DNA of 30,129 bases, taken from a virus. Taxonomy: Duplodnaviria; Heunggongvirae; Uroviricota; Caudoviricetes. Positions within the stretch are counted from its first letter, which is position 1; every line of letters starts with the position of its first letter. Shown in pieces: positions 2,631-8,553 of this stretch. Location of the stretch: positions 1-30,129 of the IMG/VR virus record IMGVR_UViG_3300029288_000083; one strand, written 5' to 3'. A model generated the notes under the pieces. It was not told the origin of the DNA, made no database searches, and was given only the letters and a program-made list of their open reading frames with translations. The position numbers and the translations under genes are program-made.

Positions 2631-2667
2631 CAAAAAAATCCCGTACGCTCACTACAACGCACGGGAT
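2631..2667 (-). terminator. Intrinsic terminator whose loop carries the GTTGTAGTGAGC motif
   Basis: Minus strand ATCCCGT-GC-GTTGTAGTGA-GC-GT-ACGGGAT followed by a T run. Confidence 0.65.
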
Positions 2668-2740
2668 AAAGAAAGGAGTTCACCTAAAGTCGATTAAAGG
2701 TAAACGGATGGTGTCATCACGACATGCATCAAACTTAAAA

Positions 2741-3535
2741 CTATGAGTCTTTAATAACTCTGCCTTTACTCCATCCGTTTGGAATAACATCAGTTATTTT
2801 TATTTTTTTATTTTGTTTCAATTCTATATTGTGAATCCACATAGTTCCATGCTGCGAATTTTTATTGCCTGCTTGTTTCCCTGCGTGCGATTCTCTCATT
2901 TTTTGTTTTGTTTCGTCCGAGTGACATCGATTTGACCATACGTATACATAACCGTTGTCGATTAATGATGGACAATCGTCGATTCCTACTCTAATAACTA
3001 TGCCATCACGCGATACCATATTTACTCTACGTTTTAATTTATCACAAACGTAATGCGAGCCCTTCTTTGTACTTTGCAATGATTTGAGTTCACCTGATAA
3101 ATAACGAGGATCATCAGTATTCACACAAAACACATTACCGTTTGAATCAATAACTGCTACTCTATTTAACGCAATTGGTTTTAATTCGCCGGATGCATAA
3201 CGAGGATCATCAATTTTAATAAGAAACGTATGTCCTTCTGAATTTTTAACCATTACACTACCTATTGTATGAAAGCCATTGAATGGAATATAATAATTCT
3301 CATTTAAAGGATCTTCAATACAATTTGTTATTTCTTCTGTTTCAAACTTTAAAGCATCTTCTCTGCAAATAAAGTCATCTTTAATAATTTCCTTTTTCAA
3401 CTTTGTCTTATCAGGTTTCCAAGTTTTCATTGAACCTAGATAAGAATCTAGAGTAGGATGAACTTCTGAACTTCTGGAACCTATATAGAATTGTTTAGTT
3501 TCTATATGTTCAATTCGATATACATAATGATACAT
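2741..3535 (-). CDS. GIY-YIG (Seg-like) free-standing homing endonuclease 1
   Basis: N-terminal YVY-x10-YIG-SR; two to three DDPRY.SGEL repeats; NUMOD3-like HSDETKQKMRESHAGK; C-terminal WIHN...IPNGW.KGR. Confidence 0.85.
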   Translation of the reverse strand: MYHYVYRIEHIETKQFYIGSRSSEVHPTLDSYLGSMKTWKPDKTKLKKEIIKDDFICREDALKFETEEITNCIEDPLNENYYIPFNGFHTIGSVMVKNSEGHTFLIKIDDPRYASGELKPIALNRVAVIDSNGNVFCVNTDDPRYLSGELKSLQSTKKGSHYVCDKLKRRVNMVSRDGIVIRVGIDDCPSLIDNGYVYVWSNRCHSDETKQKMRESHAGKQAGNKNSQHGTMWIHNIELKQNKKIKITDVIPNGWSKGRVIKDS

Positions 3536-3560
3536 ACATTTAAATATTTTTAATTATTTA

Positions 3561-3571
3561 TATTATATATC
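3561..3571 (-). promoter_or_regulatory. Class II promoter-like motif (GATATATAATA) upstream of endonuclease 1
   Basis: Related motifs precede all four endonucleases and occur at 5130, 16996, 18772 and 28203. Confidence 0.5.
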
Positions 3572-3595
3572 AAAATTGATATAGGAATAAATTAA

Positions 3596-3663
3596 AGTTT
3601 AATATAGGAATCGAACCTATCTCTACCGGACAGCCGGTGCTTCGCCTTCTAAGCTTTCCGAAC
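3596..3663 (-). tRNA. tRNA-like element with shortened anticodon arm and degenerate acceptor 3' strand (pseudo-tRNA)
   Basis: GTTCGGA AA GCTT AGAAGGCG AAGC A CCGG-CTGT-CCGG TAGAG ATAGG TTCGATT CCTAT ATTAAAC; 4-nt anticodon loop. Confidence 0.65.
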
Positions 3664-3682
3664 AATTAGAAAAAAGTAAAAT

Positions 3683-3787
3683 TTATTCGACTTTACTTTT
3701 TTGGTTTTTTGTATACTTACGAGTTCCATAGATAATTAAACCGATGAAAGCAACTGCAAGTACGATTGTTGTTGGTGTTGAGATCAT
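3683..3787 (-). CDS. 34-aa single-TM microprotein
   Basis: MISTPTTIVLAVAFIGLIIYGTRKYTKNQKSKVE*; below the track length cut-off. Confidence 0.55.
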   Translation of the reverse strand: MISTPTTIVLAVAFIGLIIYGTRKYTKNQKSKVE

Positions 3788-3789
3788 AT

Positions 3790-4410
3790 ATTGAGTTATT
3801 AAGTTACAAATAAAAACGAGAGCAGATACATAAACTTACTAGCTTTATATATCCTTAACTGATATTAATCGCCATGGCTCATGTGTACTTTACGGCCGGC
3901 AATAACAGTTGTGCACTCGTTTAACTCTATGGCCTCGTCAACCGCAGCTGTATTTAATTCTTTACCAGTTACAAACCGGTGATTAACTTATGGTCCATTA
4001 CTTTTTTCCACACGTCAATCGAATAGGGTAACACTATGCGCAATACCCAGTACCTTATTAACAGTTAGTACCATCCCGTAGTATCATTGATATGTTATAT
4101 TGCTAAGTGCAGTCCACCTATTTACCTCAACGCCTTTTGTTGAGAACAATACAATAAAACTCAGCACCACCTGTTAGTTTCAACTTTCAACCCCGGATTG
4201 GTGGTCCTAGGTATCTTGTCACATCAGTATCCGCTGGTGAGGGCGTCCGTCTCCCTCATTAATTGAACCGCTGGTCAAACCAAATACCGCGGGCATGCAG
4301 GTGCTTTTAACCTAACTATTTATATCGGACTGAACCGACGCCCATAATCTTTAATAACAATCGCTCCACATGTCTTGGCCATTAAACGACAAGGGCACCG
4401 TGTTCAACGG
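3790..4410 (-). ncRNA. Large structured ncRNA candidate (GOLLD/ROOL-class context)
   Basis: About 620 nt with no credible ORF, GC visibly higher than the flanks, many hairpins (GAGGG/CCCTC, ACCACC/GGTGGT, CTCAAC/GTTGAG, GGGTA/TACCC, ACCGGT/ACTGGT); sits within the tRNA-like cluster. Boundaries approximate. Confidence 0.55.
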
Positions 4411-4453
4411 CAATCCCTCGGATGGACTCGAACCCTCATATGAGGAGGGATTG
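4411..4453 (-). ncRNA. tRNA minihelix (acceptor stem plus T-arm only)
   Basis: CAATCCCTC/GAGGGATTG stem enclosing a 7-nt linker and the T-arm GAGGG TTCGAGT CCATC. Confidence 0.6.
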
Positions 4454-4466
4454 TTATTTTTATTTT

Positions 4467-4585
4467 GTATCGTCGGAGAGATTCGAACTCTAAAAACGCG
4501 AAACGGATTCGAACCGTATTACAACCCAAGCCGCTTTCCTTCACCCTACGCGGGCGGCATCATCCAGATACAATGCTTCACGATA
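4467..4585 (-). ncRNA. Composite tRNA-like element with two T-arms
   Basis: TATCGTG AA GCAT..ATGC, hairpin CGCCC/GGGTG, inner T-arm TACGG TTCGAAT CCGTT, outer T-arm AGAG TTCGAAT CTCT, 3' ACGATA. Confidence 0.6.
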
Positions 4586-4595
4586 TTTATTTTTG

Positions 4596-4670
4596 CTACG
4601 GTAGTAGGGTTCGAACCTACAATGTCATGGCCGATTTGACCAGGCGAATGCGCCAATATTCTGTACCGTT
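4596..4670 (-). tRNA. Pseudo-tRNA with aberrant anticodon loop
   Basis: Acceptor ACGGTA/TACCGT, D-stem GAAT/ATTC, T-arm GTAGG TTCGAAC CCTAC; anticodon arm TGGTC-AAATC-GGCCA has a 5-nt loop and no U33. Confidence 0.65.
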
Positions 4671-4741
4671 ACCGTTTCTGAATTGCTCACTACAACAATT
4701 CAGTAACATTACTTGAATAAACAAGTTTATTAATTGATAAG

Positions 4742-4807
4742 CTTCCGGAATAGGCTCCGACCCTATTTCTCCAACTGGCGCATCAATCCACTTAATGCTT
4801 TCCGGAT
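4742..4807 (-). tRNA. tRNA-like element with near-deleted anticodon arm
   Basis: ATCCGGA AA GCAT TAAGTGGATTG ATGC G CCAGTTGG AGAA ATAGG GTCGGAG CCTAT TCCGGAA G (66 nt). Confidence 0.65.
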
Positions 4808-5129
4808 ACCGTACGGAATTTGCTCACTACAACAAATTCAATACCGGTGTATTAATTGATAAAGTTTTAAAGGCAGTTGAGGTTTCCTTTTGCTATAAAA
4901 CCTCAACCTTGAATGCCTCATGTTAATCTGGAAACAAACCCTCTTGCGATTTATCGTCACAGCAAGTAAGAACGGAATGTCTTAAAGTTATCGAAACAAC
5001 CCAGGTAATACATACAACCTAGCAATTTTTTGAAAGAACAACAGGCAACCTGAAAAAACGCCGAGAGAAATTATGTATAAAAAGCGGCGGTAAAAAAATC
5101 AGGTTCCTGTTGTTAATATTTTAATTTAT

Positions 5130-5140
5130 TATTATATACA
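5130..5140 (-). promoter_or_regulatory. Class II promoter-like motif TGTATATAATA heading the ncRNA/tRNA-like locus
   Basis: Exact motif match, followed by a long hairpin leader. Confidence 0.55.
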
Positions 5141-5180
5141 GAAGTATTTCAAAGTTTCAAATTAATTTTGATTTTATTAA

Positions 5181-5218
5181 AAGGAAAACCTTTAACAAGA
5201 TTATTAAAGGTTTTCCTT
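5181..5218 (-). terminator. Perfect 15-bp inverted repeat, probable terminator
   Basis: AAGGAAAACCTTTAA-8nt-TTAAAGGTTTTCCTT, just downstream of the 5238 stop. Confidence 0.75.
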
Positions 5219-5237
5219 ACAGAACAATTATTGGAAA

Positions 5238-5669
5238 TTATTTAACAGGAGTGATTTTAGTTAAAACAACGTTTCCTTTTTCGTCAACGATATGTTTTAA
5301 TCCACGTTGAGCAAGTTTGTATTCAACCGCCTCTTTTGTTACGAAGTTTGCGTTTCTTTGAGCAAGTTTGTAATCGGCAGAGTTTTTCAATTTGTTTTCT
5401 GCGTTTTTAGCAGCGATAGATTCATTGTATTTTTTTTGGTCAGCGATTTGTTCGTCAAGAGATTTGATACGAGATTCTTCAGTTCTTCTAGCAACCTCAG
5501 CTTTATTTGAACGAAGTGTGTGTTCAAATTCAGAAACAGCTCTACCGAAGTGATCTTTATAACCTTTAGAATTTCCACATTTCATTTTTCCAACAGGAAA
5601 TTCAAATGAGTCAGCAACAGTTTGATTTTGTTTTGCGATTTTCGATTGGATTTTTTTAGAGTTTTTCAT
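5238..5669 (-). CDS. Basic coiled-coil hypothetical protein (early)
   Basis: ORF track; start reassigned to MKNSKK; directly behind promoter copy 2. Confidence 0.75.
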   Translation of the reverse strand: MKNSKKIQSKIAKQNQTVADSFEFPVGKMKCGNSKGYKDHFGRAVSEFEHTLRSNKAEVARRTEESRIKSLDEQIADQKKYNESIAAKNAENKLKNSADYKLAQRNANFVTKEAVEYKLAQRGLKHIVDEKGNVVLTKITPVK

Positions 5670-5718
5670 AATTTTCAAGTTTTTGTAGTGAATGTTTATA
5701 TTTATCAATTATTATATT

Positions 5719-5749
5719 CAAATATACAACAATAATCAGGCAATAGCAA
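5719..5749 (-). promoter_or_regulatory. Class I promoter, copy 2
   Basis: TTG-N20-TATATTTG. Confidence 0.8.
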
Positions 5750-5832
5750 GGGTTTTGTTGTTTTTTTTTACTTTTTTTTAATTTTTTTTTGAAAGAACGG
5801 GTATTAATTTTGTTTTGTTTAATTGTTAAAAT

Positions 5833-5863
5833 CAAATATACAACATTATTGCAGCAATAGCAA
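5833..5863 (-). promoter_or_regulatory. Class I promoter, copy 3 (tandem with copy 2, no gene between)
   Basis: TTG-N20-TATATTTG. Confidence 0.8.
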
Positions 5864-5881
5864 TGGTTTGTGTATTTATTT

Positions 5882-6622
5882 TTAATTATTTTTACTTTTT
5901 ATTTCCATCATTTCAGCTTTTGTTCTTCTTTGCTTTCGTTTGACATAAATCTTCCGTCCTATTAACCAGCCATCTGGTATCTCTGTATCTTTTTTAATCC
6001 TTTTATTTTTTATCAATTCATCGCAGTGAATCCATATAGTGCCATACGTACTAGTCTGTTCGCCCACATACTTTTTATTTGCATCACTTATTTTTATTTT
6101 AGTTGCCAAAGATTTAATGTGTCCTACGTTATAGTGAACTAGTTCGCCATTCGCATATCTAGGATCGTCAATAGATACAATTAATTTATTACCGTTTTCA
6201 TCCTTTACTAATGTTTTTCCTGTTCGCTTTCCTGCATTCATATGTTCGTACTGTCCACTTGTATATAACGGATCATTAATTGAAATTTTAAACAATTTGC
6301 CGTTTTCATCTTTTACCGTTGTCATACCTGCATTTGTATGTTTGCCGGTTTTATAAAAAGCTGTATTCGGAATTGCGTAGTTTTCATTTAATGGATTATT
6401 GATATGCTTACGAATTTCAACTTCTTCAAATTGCAATGCAGATATTCTATCAGAAAAGTTATCTTTAATAATTTCTTTTATTAATTTTGTTTTATCAGGT
6501 TTCCATGTTTTCATTGAACCTACATAGTTAACGTCGTCTATTGGTTTGCAGCTGCAAGTTCGAGATCCAATATAAAATTGATTCGTTTCTATGTGTGTTA
6601 CTTTATATACATAATAATGCAT
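5882..6622 (-). CDS. GIY-YIG homing endonuclease 2
   Basis: YVY-x10-YIG-SR; two VKDENG...DP.Y..G repeats; NUMOD3-like segment; WIH...IPDGWLIGR. Confidence 0.85.
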   Translation of the reverse strand: MHYYVYKVTHIETNQFYIGSRTCSCKPIDDVNYVGSMKTWKPDKTKLIKEIIKDNFSDRISALQFEEVEIRKHINNPLNENYAIPNTAFYKTGKHTNAGMTTVKDENGKLFKISINDPLYTSGQYEHMNAGKRTGKTLVKDENGNKLIVSIDDPRYANGELVHYNVGHIKSLATKIKISDANKKYVGEQTSTYGTIWIHCDELIKNKRIKKDTEIPDGWLIGRKIYVKRKQRRTKAEMMEIKSKNN

Positions 6623-6676
6623 AATCTAAACTTTTTAATTTTGTTTAAATTATATATTCATTTTAGTATGGGTTAT

Positions 6677-6796
6677 TTATAAAGTTACTGGAGAGTTTAT
6701 CCATAGGATTAAAGCACCTAAGATAATTGCAATTCCGCAGTTGATTAAATCCGCTTTTGTAATTTTTGTTTTGGTTGAGGTATTTGTAGTTTCCAT
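6677..6796 (-). CDS. 39-aa single-TM microprotein
   Basis: METTNTSTKTKITKADLINCGIAIILGALILWINSPVTL*, directly behind promoter copy 4. Confidence 0.55.
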   Translation of the reverse strand: METTNTSTKTKITKADLINCGIAIILGALILWINSPVTL

Positions 6797-6825
6797 ATTG
6801 TTTGTTATTATCAATTATGTATATA

Positions 6826-6856
6826 CAAATATAAACTAAAAAGACCTCAATAGCAA
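6826..6856 (-). promoter_or_regulatory. Class I promoter, copy 4 (overlaps an 18-bp inverted repeat)
   Basis: TTG-N20-TATATTTG. Confidence 0.7.
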
Positions 6857-6913
6857 TAGTAATGCAAATTATTTTTCATAAAATGCAATATTTTTTTGCT
6901 ATTGAGGTCTTTT
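6839..6913. repeat. Perfect 18-bp inverted repeat with 39-nt spacer
   Basis: AAAAGACCTCAATAGCAA (6839-6856) / TTGCTATTGAGGTCTTTT (6896-6913). Confidence 0.9.
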
Positions 6914-6922
6914 GATATGATT

Positions 6923-7729
6923 TTAAATGTTGTAGTCCTGCCAGTTTGACTGTTTTTCAGTACTTACAACTTGAAGTCCGAATCTTTTGTTCCATTGTTC
7001 GCACAAATCGTACTCAAATTTTGCACAAAGGTCAAGTGCAGTCTTGTATTTATCAACAACCGACCATAATTTTGGTGGTGTTTTTTCATTTGGGTAACCG
7101 CCGGTACGATAATGGAAGTACTGTAGCATTTGCCAGAACTCTTTTGGGTCGCCGTTGCATTCAACAACATATGCATCATGATGTTTTTTCATCAATGGCC
7201 ATAACGTTGCGTTCAAACGTTGGCGGGTTGTTGCGCATTCATCAAGTAATGATGTGATACGTTTATCCATTGGGAAGTATTCAGGTTCACCTTCAGTAAC
7301 TGTTACGTTAGTATCAAGTGAAAGCAAACGGTTTATTTTATCGTCATTGGTTTGCATGTCGGTGTACAAGTGTTTTCTTGTAGCAGATTTCTTTGCGGAC
7401 GTAAGTGCGTCGGCATCCATTTTTTCTAAAAGATCTTTATCAATTTCAAGGTCGCCGAATAATTTTTTACGACGGATATTTACAAGTTCGAAGAAAAACG
7501 GTTTCGTGATTGAAACATTTTCTTCAAGCAATTCTTTAATCTCTGCCCATGCATCGATTTTAATTGAATCGGATCCTTCACAAATTTCAGTCAGTACAGC
7601 ATTTGCTGATTCCAAAAGTACTTGTGCCTTTTGAACTGTTGAGCGAGGAACTGAATTAAGTTGTGTTAGTTCAACAACTTCTTCTGCGTTTTCACGCATG
7701 CCTTTGGTAATCTTGATTTCTTTCGACAT
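6923..7729 (-). CDS. Hypothetical alpha-helical protein (268 aa)
   Basis: Long ORF; no motif recognised. Confidence 0.85.
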   Translation of the reverse strand: MSKEIKITKGMRENAEEVVELTQLNSVPRSTVQKAQVLLESANAVLTEICEGSDSIKIDAWAEIKELLEENVSITKPFFFELVNIRRKKLFGDLEIDKDLLEKMDADALTSAKKSATRKHLYTDMQTNDDKINRLLSLDTNVTVTEGEPEYFPMDKRITSLLDECATTRQRLNATLWPLMKKHHDAYVVECNGDPKEFWQMLQYFHYRTGGYPNEKTPPKLWSVVDKYKTALDLCAKFEYDLCEQWNKRFGLQVVSTEKQSNWQDYNI

Positions 7730-7757
7730 TAGTTTTAAGTATTAAGTTTAACAATAG

Positions 7758-7830
7758 TGGCGAGGACAGGATTCGAACCTGTTTCTCCGGATACTGAACG
7801 ACCAGGCTTCACCAACAAAGCTTCCTCGCC
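7758..7830 (-). tRNA. tRNA-like gene with UCA anticodon (candidate opal suppressor)
   Basis: GGCGAGG AA GCTT TGTTGGTG AAGC C TGGTC GT-TCA-GT ATCCG GAGAA ACAGG TTCGAAT CCTGT CCTCGCC A; 73 nt, canonical spacing, U33; anticodon stem has two mismatches; no encoded CCA. Confidence 0.7.
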
Positions 7831-7945
7831 ATATCAGTTTTATCTTAAGAACTGAAAAACTCAACCGAACTACGATTCGGACGAAGCTATTTGATTGCTC
7901 AGGGATACTTCGAGTTACGATCTACACGTCTGCAGCCTGCTTATC

Positions 7946-8089
7946 TTATTCCAATTCTGTTTCGACAAAGTCAATGAACTCTTCTAGTTCGTCAGTTGTC
8001 ATGTAATTTCCTAACAACTCTATGACTTTTTCAATTGATTGGTCTTCTAATAGTTCTTTTAACTTGTAAAATGCTGTAACTTTCACCAT
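7946..8089 (-). CDS. 47-aa acidic hypothetical protein
   Basis: MVKVTAFYKLKELLEDQSIEKVIELLGNYMTTDELEEFIDFVETELE*; abuts the upstream gene. Confidence 0.65.
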   Translation of the reverse strand: MVKVTAFYKLKELLEDQSIEKVIELLGNYMTTDELEEFIDFVETELE

Positions 8090-8093
8090 GGGA

Positions 8094-8264
8094 TTACAGT
8101 TTTTCGTATTCTTCCTCGATTAATACACGATGTCTGATGCCATCAATGACTTGACAAAGAATATTTCCACTTTCTAAGACTTGAAAAACGATACATTCAG
8201 TACCGATTGGTATGCCGTGTCCTAAAACATCAGCAATAACTTTTACTTTATCTCCTGTTTGCAT
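8094..8264 (-). CDS. Small SH3-like beta protein
   Basis: Start reassigned to MQTGDKVKV; GDKVKV...IGTECIV pattern typical of small phage beta-barrels. Confidence 0.65.
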   Translation of the reverse strand: MQTGDKVKVIADVLGHGIPIGTECIVFQVLESGNILCQVIDGIRHRVLIEEEYEKL

Positions 8265-8268
8265 ACTT

Positions 8269-8553
8269 TTATTTTTTAAATTTTGCAACTTTAACTTTTT
8301 CACCTATTTGAAATGCACCTAATGTATCTTTAAACGATATGTCAGGATCTTTACTTGCAATTCTTGCAACATATACAGCCAAACGTTCGTCATATCTATC
8401 CACAGTTATGTCTGTAATTTTGTAAACTGAAACTTCAGGCGCCTTGATTACCTCAACTTCAACTTGTTTTTTACAATGAGACCTACCGTTATCCTTCGGA
8501 GCGCAAGGTGACATCAGAATTCCTGCAGTCAATATCAGAAAATACTTTTTCAT
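8269..8553 (-). CDS. Exported or lipoprotein-like hypothetical protein
   Basis: Signal-peptide-like N-terminus with a Cys at position 17. Confidence 0.7.
   Translation of the reverse strand: MKKYFLILTAGILMSPCAPKDNGRSHCKKQVEVEVIKAPEVSVYKITDITVDRYDERLAVYVARIASKDPDISFKDTLGAFQIGEKVKVAKFKK

Follow-up and report, generated by a model that had tools for sequence, protein, structure and literature searches.

What does a tRNA body that cannot decode do in a phage genome? The usual view of phage tRNA genes is that they supplement the host's codon supply or make good the tRNAs that host defences destroy. Non-decoding tRNA-shaped RNAs match neither view, and a set of them appears to lie near the start of the IMG/VR virus record IMGVR_UViG_3300029288_000083 (Caudoviricetes). 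The window, that is, the whole stretch of DNA analysed (30,129 nt), is the first 30 kb of this 155.6-kb record, which is rated ~49% complete. It comes from an uncultured huge phage of ~425 kb; identical proteins are also found on a 425-kb contig. Searches for absent genes cover the 155-kb record, about half of the genome. The sequences in question, here called elements A to E, lie in an RNA cluster at 3.6-4.84 kb on the minus strand, which carries all genes. A first-pass annotation of the letters alone had described A, C, D and a nearby tRNA with a UCA anticodon as one family with graded loss of the anticodon arm, and B as a fifth element. The coordinates were right, and all of these elements are on the minus strand. 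The single graded family did not survive: the set is mixed, D is a mosaic and C has no statistical support. The cluster looks instead like a collection of unequal tRNA-derived modules, only part of which seems deliberately kept.

Elements A and B are real tRNA-shaped sequences; they are derived from tRNA and are unable to decode. They are the only sub-threshold matches to the Rfam tRNA model (RF00005, gathering cut-off 29 bits) in the whole record, with E ~7e-4 (6.8e-4 for A, for the 155-kb record). The cut-off is exceeded by 54 matches, nearly all in a tRNA island at 46-72 kb. The covariance-model check proposed in the first pass has three outcomes: the UCA tRNA is a true member, A and B fall short of the cut-off, and C and D yield nothing or fragments only. 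B is the best formed. Its stems are all intact but for a mismatch at 1-72 (6 of 7 acceptor pairs), the cloverleaf is its minimum-energy fold (z -1.9), and its anticodon hairpin has a 5-bp stem and a 5-nt loop, AAAUC. Positions 8 and 9 are C and A. In element A, positions 8 and 9 are both A, the D stem pairs GCUU with AAGC below a loop that contains GG, and the T arm is perfect; a CUGU tetraloop on a 4-bp CCGG/CCGG stem stands at the anticodon position. The seven positions of its acceptor form three Watson-Crick and two G.U pairs, with two mismatches. These short loops are as first described.

None of the four elements A to D has the full set of features of a canonical tRNA. Where such a tRNA has a 5-bp stem and a 7-nt anticodon loop that includes U33, A has a loop of 4 nt, B one of 5 nt, C the hairpin CC-AGUU-GG and D a loop of 5 nt. 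Acceptor pairs number 5/7 in A and 6/7 in B, the acceptors of C and D have 6 bp, and position 8 (U8 in a canonical tRNA) is A, C, A and A, respectively. A cloverleaf with a short closed anticodon hairpin is found in A and B and in two sequences of the tRNA island, 64511-64582 and 69235-69303. B, and probably A, can be read as whole tRNA bodies in which the anticodon loop has been closed off. The top global matches of A among 77 tRNAs compared are 69235-69303, the UCA tRNA and 64511-64582; A is also 79% identical over 55 nt to intact tRNA-Asn genes of Pseudomonas phages, one of which likewise has A8A9. No close parent tRNA was found for B or C in the genome or the phage database. A B-like match in MT836524 is due to chance; it sits in a 619-residue open reading frame (ORF), on the opposite strand.

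The strongest case for selection comes from the tRNA island. The look-alike at 69235-69303 (minus strand) has A8A9 and a closed anticodon hairpin of 14 nt. Its counterpart is at 4597-4665 of L188, an 11.8-kb contig which was recovered with the phage flotillin as bait and shows synteny with the tRNA island (65-95% identity). All 20 base pairs are kept between the two copies. Six of them have changed in a compensatory manner, four in the acceptor and two in the short hairpin, and none is broken; D and T arms match base for base (100%), and both copies have the closed 14-nt hairpin and no 7-nt loop. Because of these six compensatory pairs and the lack of broken ones, it is clear that this non-decoding, closed-anticodon tRNA body is kept by purifying selection in the lineage. 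No match to it was found in the phage collection. By analogy, A and B would be of the same kind, A probably so; B, and less surely A, fit with the selected non-decoding class. Two further look-alikes occur in the island. The one at 64511-64582 has a tetraloop, 44.5 bits and a clean cloverleaf fold. The other, 54499-54582, scores 35 bits; its tetraloop is read from the letters only, and its minimum-energy fold is not a cloverleaf. A 'tRNA-other' of Bacillus phage G akin to 64511-64582 turned out to be a UUA suppressor tRNA and not anticodon-less, and the phage-collection matches of 54499-54582 are ordinary tRNA-Ser-like sequences only. Directly upstream of the selected look-alike, at 69304-69362 and at L188:4520-4596, are a T arm, a closed acceptor-type hairpin and a D arm, in the order seen in YrlA. 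The hairpin pairs co-vary between both phages; alternatively, this could be two abutting tRNA stumps.

The other elements are of a different quality. Element C consists of a 6-bp acceptor, AA, a 7-bp hairpin with a 5-nt loop in place of the D arm, the CC-AGUU-GG hairpin, and a 5-bp stem whose T loop, GUCGGAG, has lost U54 and A58. A simple cloverleaf descriptor finds ~60 matches per random 155-kb genome. Since no model matches C and its shape is common in random sequence, it is not demonstrably tRNA-derived. Its 5' half (AAGCAUU...UGGAU.GAUGC.GCC) is similar to that of D. Two canonical T arms occur in element D, one at 4503-4517 and the other at 4477-4491. The outer stem has 6 bp, and three extra bases separate T arm 2 from the acceptor. 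It folds no better than shuffled sequences (z +0.26) and gives no full covariance-model match, only T-arm fragments; it takes relaxed settings for ARAGORN to call a tRNA-like fold of 91 nt inside it, at 4494-4584. The segment 4454-4490, which spans T arm 2, the 3' acceptor strand and the trailer, shares 86% identity with the 3' end and trailer of an intact L188 tRNA-Glu. The 5' strand of D resembles that of the same tRNA minus one base, and the interior is unrelated. With a tRNA-Glu-like frame, a foreign interior and a missing base, D is a mosaic relic with acceptor damage; an intact homologue of this sort is what the first-pass annotation had named as evidence against its own reading. Element E, a sixth piece missed at that time, has a 9-bp stem around GAGGG-UUCGAGU-CCAUC. 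Its T arm matches many tRNAs; it can pair in two alternative long helices and adjoins the 5' edge of a structured RNA.

D and E descend from tRNA. D is a mosaic or truncated leftover of ordinary tRNA genes, and the same probably goes for C and E. According to the first pass, D and T arms were retained throughout; they are intact in A and B, and in C the T-loop signature is lost and the 'D arm' is a plain hairpin. Nor is the damage confined to the anticodon arm, as had been proposed: there are acceptor lesions in A and D in addition to the T-loop change in C. T-arm stumps and double-T-arm tRNA-like sequences are frequent in other phage loci of IMG/VR. Several IMG/VR phages (L062, L084, L094, L098, L061, L075 and L076) have two-T-arm tRNA-like genes with the acceptor AGUCAGG/CCUGACU, and in some of them the second T-arm-like hairpin takes the place of the anticodon arm.

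Cassettes with HNH homing endonucleases have entered the cluster. In three variant strains (L047, L052 and L124), otherwise >99.7% identical to the record, the junction of B and D is the exact insertion point of a 790-bp HNH cassette. The 5' end of this cassette is 85% identical to that of the cassette behind A. Four HNH genes lie in the first 12 kb, and there are more in the tRNA island. HNH cassettes land directly behind tRNA-type 3' ends and would reshuffle the cluster continually; the wreckage of this traffic includes D, probably E and perhaps C. The clusters around SegB of phage T4 (PMC2330249) are similar in that tight, one-strand groups of tRNA-type genes have endonucleases inserted and vary in presence between relatives. 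They differ from the present cluster, where the endonucleases are of the HNH type, the elements are non-decoding or mosaic, and the tRNA island is 40 kb away. Features of the locus are listed below.

Table 1. Positions of the RNA elements and neighbouring features in the window
Feature	Position	Strand	Basis or remark
Element A, tRNA look-alike	3596..3663	-	Rfam tRNA 24.3 bits
Element B, best-formed non-decoding tRNA look-alike	4596..4670	-	Rfam tRNA 24.4 bits; C8
Element C, cloverleaf-shaped RNA, doubtful tRNA descent	4742..4807	-	Fold z -2.1; no covariance-model hit
Element D, mosaic	4467..4585	-	tRNA-Glu-type frame around foreign tRNA-like interior with its own T arm 1
Element E, acceptor-plus-T-arm minihelix	4411..4453	-	Sequence and fold
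tRNA with UCA anticodon, A8A9 and U14	7758..7830	-	ARAGORN; Rfam 39.7 bits (true RF00005 member)
Insertion site of 790-bp HNH cassette	4587..4598		Between B and D in co-occurring strains
HNH homing-endonuclease cassette	2638..3577	-	PHROG HNH/homing endonuclease hits; starts 19 nt behind A
Mini-ORF, 34 residues, single-pass membrane	3683..3787	-	Sole plausible ORF in 3560-5240
AT-rich hairpin after mini-ORF	3672-3700	-	Read from sequence
Consensus promoter heading RNA cluster	5131..5160	-	TTGAAAC, 17-18 nt, TGTATATAAT; 11/12 sigma-70 consensus
Hairpin 1, invariant core GUUGUAGUGAGC	4816..4839	-	Fold z -3.9; 8 nt upstream of C
Hairpin 2, core GUUGUAGUGAGC	4678..4703	-	Fold z -5.3; ~7 nt upstream of B
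Hairpin 3, core GUUGUAGUGAGC and U run	2638-2667	-	End of HNH cassette behind A; terminator scan
Non-coding RNA of ~600 nt	3800..4410	-	No Rfam family; 3' domain ~3820-3916 with covariation

The setting is that of an RNA locus. Between ~3590 and 5230 there is no ORF of at least 60 residues, no ORF precedes the mini-ORF in the cluster, and the flanks contain small unknown genes and HNH genes. The GC content of the cluster is 41%, compared with 32% for the genome; it is 47-50% in every element and 8-20% in the adjoining spacers. Five canonical T arms lie within 1.1 kb. B, D and E are separated by AT-rich spacers of 10-13 nt, like the genes of a tRNA array. The extended promoter motif recurs at 39064, 49720, 59772 and 65131 (minus strand), three of these within the tRNA island.

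At E up to 10 the ~600-nt RNA has no match in Rfam; it is a real structured RNA. The evidence comes from a diverged strain seen in metatranscriptome contigs (two runs, one study), which is ~17% different over 3775-3916. In the 3' domain (3820-3916) there are four compensatory and four one-sided pair changes, and the joint fold has zero broken pairs. With a fold made from the reference only, the four both-side changes compare with 0.8 expected for random substitutions (P for 4 or more = 0.005). A G.U pair has become G-C at 4397. These compensatory changes show that the RNA is structured, which makes the locus a probable working RNA operon. Elsewhere the diverged strain has 79 other bases in place of the 118 nt at 4232-4349 and lacks 21 nt of spacer at 4708. 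It does not differ from the reference over C or over those parts of A and B that the contigs cover, and is nearly identical over the covered part of D (at most three differences in 4350-4555). All three kinds of strain variant (the HNH insertion, the 21-nt deletion and the 118-to-79-nt replacement) fall outside A-D. Metatranscriptome contigs overlie parts of the cluster, and one crosses the hairpin after the mini-ORF into A, a weak sign of transcription as DNA carry-over is possible; the contigs carry no information on RNA ends, strand or level.

The explanation that fits best, tentatively preferred here, is a transcribed, protein-free RNA cluster of unequal tRNA-derived modules, reshuffled by HNH elements, in which B and A are closed-anticodon bodies that serve as processing signals. 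One long primary transcript would start at the promoter at 5160. Host RNase P and the 3' tRNA-processing enzymes would cut it at the tRNA-shaped modules, freeing the hairpin RNAs, the ~600-nt structured RNA and the mini-ORF message. Stable tRNA-shaped RNAs would remain, and may occupy a factor which reads the tRNA elbow. A processing role is favoured because RNase P and the 3' enzymes need only the acceptor, T arm and elbow, which is the part kept, and because the modules are placed like array genes between RNAs that need to be separated. The idea of selected non-decoding mimics, put forward in the first pass, holds in part: A and B are non-decoding and have elbows, there is a promoter, the GC content is tRNA-like and 69235-69303 is selected; D, however, is a relic and C is unsupported. 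A bait for enzymes acting on the tRNA tail or elbow is also possible (PMC12851939, PMC13056530).

Several results weigh against this explanation. A and B are below the Rfam cut-off. The acceptor of A is barely above chance, and its cloverleaf (-8.9 kcal/mol) is 4.4 worse than the minimum-energy fold (-13.3). C is statistically indistinguishable from chance, and the acceptor lesion of D is uncompensated. The tetraloop look-alikes are not all conserved, as 64511-64582 is absent from L188. No gene for tRNA processing or repair (RtcB, CCA-adding enzyme, TROVE) was found in the 155-kb record, about half of the genome. None of the searches gave a diverged copy of the cluster, and covariation thus lends no support to A-D. 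The collection of cultured or deposited phages has no match to the 1.7-kb region, and in IMG/VR no relative was retrieved with four DNA patterns, with one of the neighbouring proteins or with a protein of 751 residues typical of the lineage; five large IMG/VR records with A8A9 tRNAs have nothing resembling the region. Two neighbouring proteins have 1-2 relatives among 5.8 billion proteins, all on contigs of <2.3 kb, and Pfam has no informative family for ten neighbouring proteins. A metagenome scan with the hairpin core recovered the same species only, as L124, which is identical to the L047 variant; a further 75 matches lack the hairpin and look like chance.

The most serious alternative, which is nevertheless rather unlikely, is that none of the elements is selected and all are debris. 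Homing-endonuclease cassettes would have cut up an old tRNA array, duplicated parts of it and written over others; what is left would be carried passively in the leader of a transcript in which selection acts on the ~600-nt RNA and the mini-ORF alone. The abundance of HNH genes fits this well, as do the cassette that is present or absent exactly behind B, its paralogue behind A, the make-up of D with its duplicated T arm, and the T-arm stumps which are common behind tRNAs in IMG/VR phage loci. The graded degeneracy, sub-threshold scores and acceptor and T-loop lesions suit pseudogenes of differing age, and a single anticodon-loop deletion suffices for a young pseudogene resembling B. Passive decay does not sit easily with the sharp GC contrast between each element and its spacers, nor with the essentially perfect stems of B and C, for which no close parent is recognisable. 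In at least five separate look-alikes of the genome it is specifically the anticodon loop that is disabled, and 69235-69303 is under selection. A broader proposal, possible but doubtful, is that huge phages of the lineage keep closed-anticodon bodies of the A8A9 type (69235-69303, A and probably B) as non-decoding signals for cutting, perhaps also as elbow baits, and that HNH cassettes copy and move them, so that the wreckage becomes raw material for new RNA parts.

The nucleases PrrC, RloC, PARIS AriB and PtuAB read the anticodon loop of their tRNA targets. Decoys for such enzymes, as first suggested, are unlikely because that loop is missing here. In a wider form, the elements would divert tRNA-attacking host defences, as decoys or sponges with the docking parts kept and the cut part gone; A, B and D do retain the elbow and T arm with the anticodon loop removed. 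Defences that act outside the anticodon loop have been described: Cas12a3 attacks tRNA tails (PMC12851939), P2 OLD amputates the anticodon arm (PMC12445682), and bacterial Schlafen nucleases likewise act elsewhere on the tRNA (PMC13056530). Phages are known to use tRNAs as a counter-defence (PMC10264068, PMC11555353), and the short anticodon stem of the UCA tRNA resembles the design of an OLD-resistant phage tRNA-Thr, a documented resistance feature (PMC12445682). In nuclease-evading phage tRNAs the anticodon arm is likewise the main site of change (PMC10264068; PMC12445682), but those tRNAs decode, whereas A and B, with loops of 4-5 nt, cannot. A non-decoding RNA is no substitute for a cleaved tRNA, and no defence or anti-defence gene was found near the cluster. 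This role is improbable.

T loops recur as tertiary-contact motifs in large RNAs, and the T-arm modules could on this basis be T-loop domains of one folded RNA of at least 1.2 kb, with E at the edge of the structured RNA, its alternative helices, a single promoter and no internal terminator in favour; this is more improbable still, as the whole region folds no better than shuffles (z -1.6), the B cloverleaf is self-contained, and a 790-bp gene that would split a single fold is tolerated between B and D.

Several known RNA classes were rejected for the cluster. ARAGORN finds no transfer-messenger RNA (tmRNA) in the genome, and the Rfam tmRNA model matches only T-loop pieces of 15 and 11 nt. No hit at E up to 10 was obtained for GOLLD or ROOL (3560-4860 or 3000-8500), for YrlA/Y RNA (RF02553; 3000-8500) or for group I or II introns. 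A split tRNA with a group I intron is also not indicated by A, B and C, where both acceptor strands are present. No TROVE domain is encoded in the 155 kb. In concept, YrlA/Y RNAs and the predicted Band-7-associated b7a-tRNA are close (bioRxiv 10.1101/312249, citing Burroughs and Aravind 2016): these are non-decoding tRNA mimics, with a D/T elbow and no anticodon loop. A Band-7 flotillin is also present in this phage; in a relative, Band-7 adjoins an Rnl2 RNA ligase and a Thg1-like gene. The acceptor ends of the present elements are open, unlike those of YrlA, where a loop closes the acceptor and the termini lie at the anticodon stem, and no Ro60/TROVE or RtcB gene was detected. On a related phage-like contig (L186:5721-11587; NCBI JAPZCB010000025.1), a Thg1-like gene, a metallophosphatase, a GIY-YIG endonuclease and an Rnl2-type RNA ligase lie just upstream of the flotillin. 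A 199-residue gene is located between ligase and flotillin, an arrangement that echoes the published association of Band-7 with RNA repair. The principle proposed for the cluster, in which RNase P or Z cuts a long transcript at a tRNA-like fold with no need for an anticodon, is that of mascRNA (the MALAT1 3' end, RF01684) and of mitochondrial tRNA punctuation. Those cases are eukaryotic or organellar; cleavage here is a proposal, and the window has no RF01684 match.

One genome shows both sides: one such RNA is clearly preserved by selection, and its neighbours include apparent by-products of selfish endonuclease traffic. Odd tRNAs should not all be taken for designed mimics. B, A and 69235-69303 are concrete candidates for a function as processing signal or bait.

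The signature on which the first-pass family was built is real as far as A8 goes. U8 is absent from two of the 52 tRNAs called by ARAGORN (the UCA tRNA and 69235-69303), and A8 is also found in A, C and D. It is unusual in this record and is not in itself a mark of decay. The pattern AAGCUU...GAAGC retrieves 32 distinct intact phage tRNAs from IMG/VR (22 Lys, 6 Thr, 3 Phe and 1 His). Among these A8-type tRNAs (L009-L046), 26/32 have U14, as if the U8-A14 tertiary pair had been swapped. The same swap had been proposed for the cluster. It holds for the UCA tRNA, which has A8, A9 and U14, but not for A, where position 14 is A; in C and D the U14 is paired within a long hairpin. The anticodon arm of the UCA tRNA had been called full length, but its stem has only 3-4 bp (mismatches U30.U40 and C31.A39). 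It is true that none of the elements encodes CCA, but this is the norm here, as only 1/52 tRNAs does so. Suppressor-type tRNAs (UCA and CUA) are among the tRNAs of the record. The relative L059 has no tRNA at the position of the UCA tRNA.

The hairpins around the elements share the core GUUGUAGUGAGC, which occurs three times in the 155 kb, always in this region and on unrelated stems. The shared loop could be a putative protein-binding site. Hairpins 1 and 2 were considered as stubs of lost HNH cassettes; the similarity is limited to a short CCTTTAA..ACTTTA, and the idea is weakened by the presence of the hairpin in just one of at least seven HNH genes. At L188:4552, UUGUAGUG forms the loop of a hairpin made from the 3' acceptor strand of one tRNA and the 5' acceptor strand of the next. 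The promoter family TTTGAAACT...TGTATATAAT is strongly conserved, and several members head segments of the tRNA island. In the diverged strain, residue 5 of the mini-ORF is changed from P to S. L188 also has, at 3140-3213, a 51-bit tRNA with a 6-nt anticodon loop, GUUCAA.

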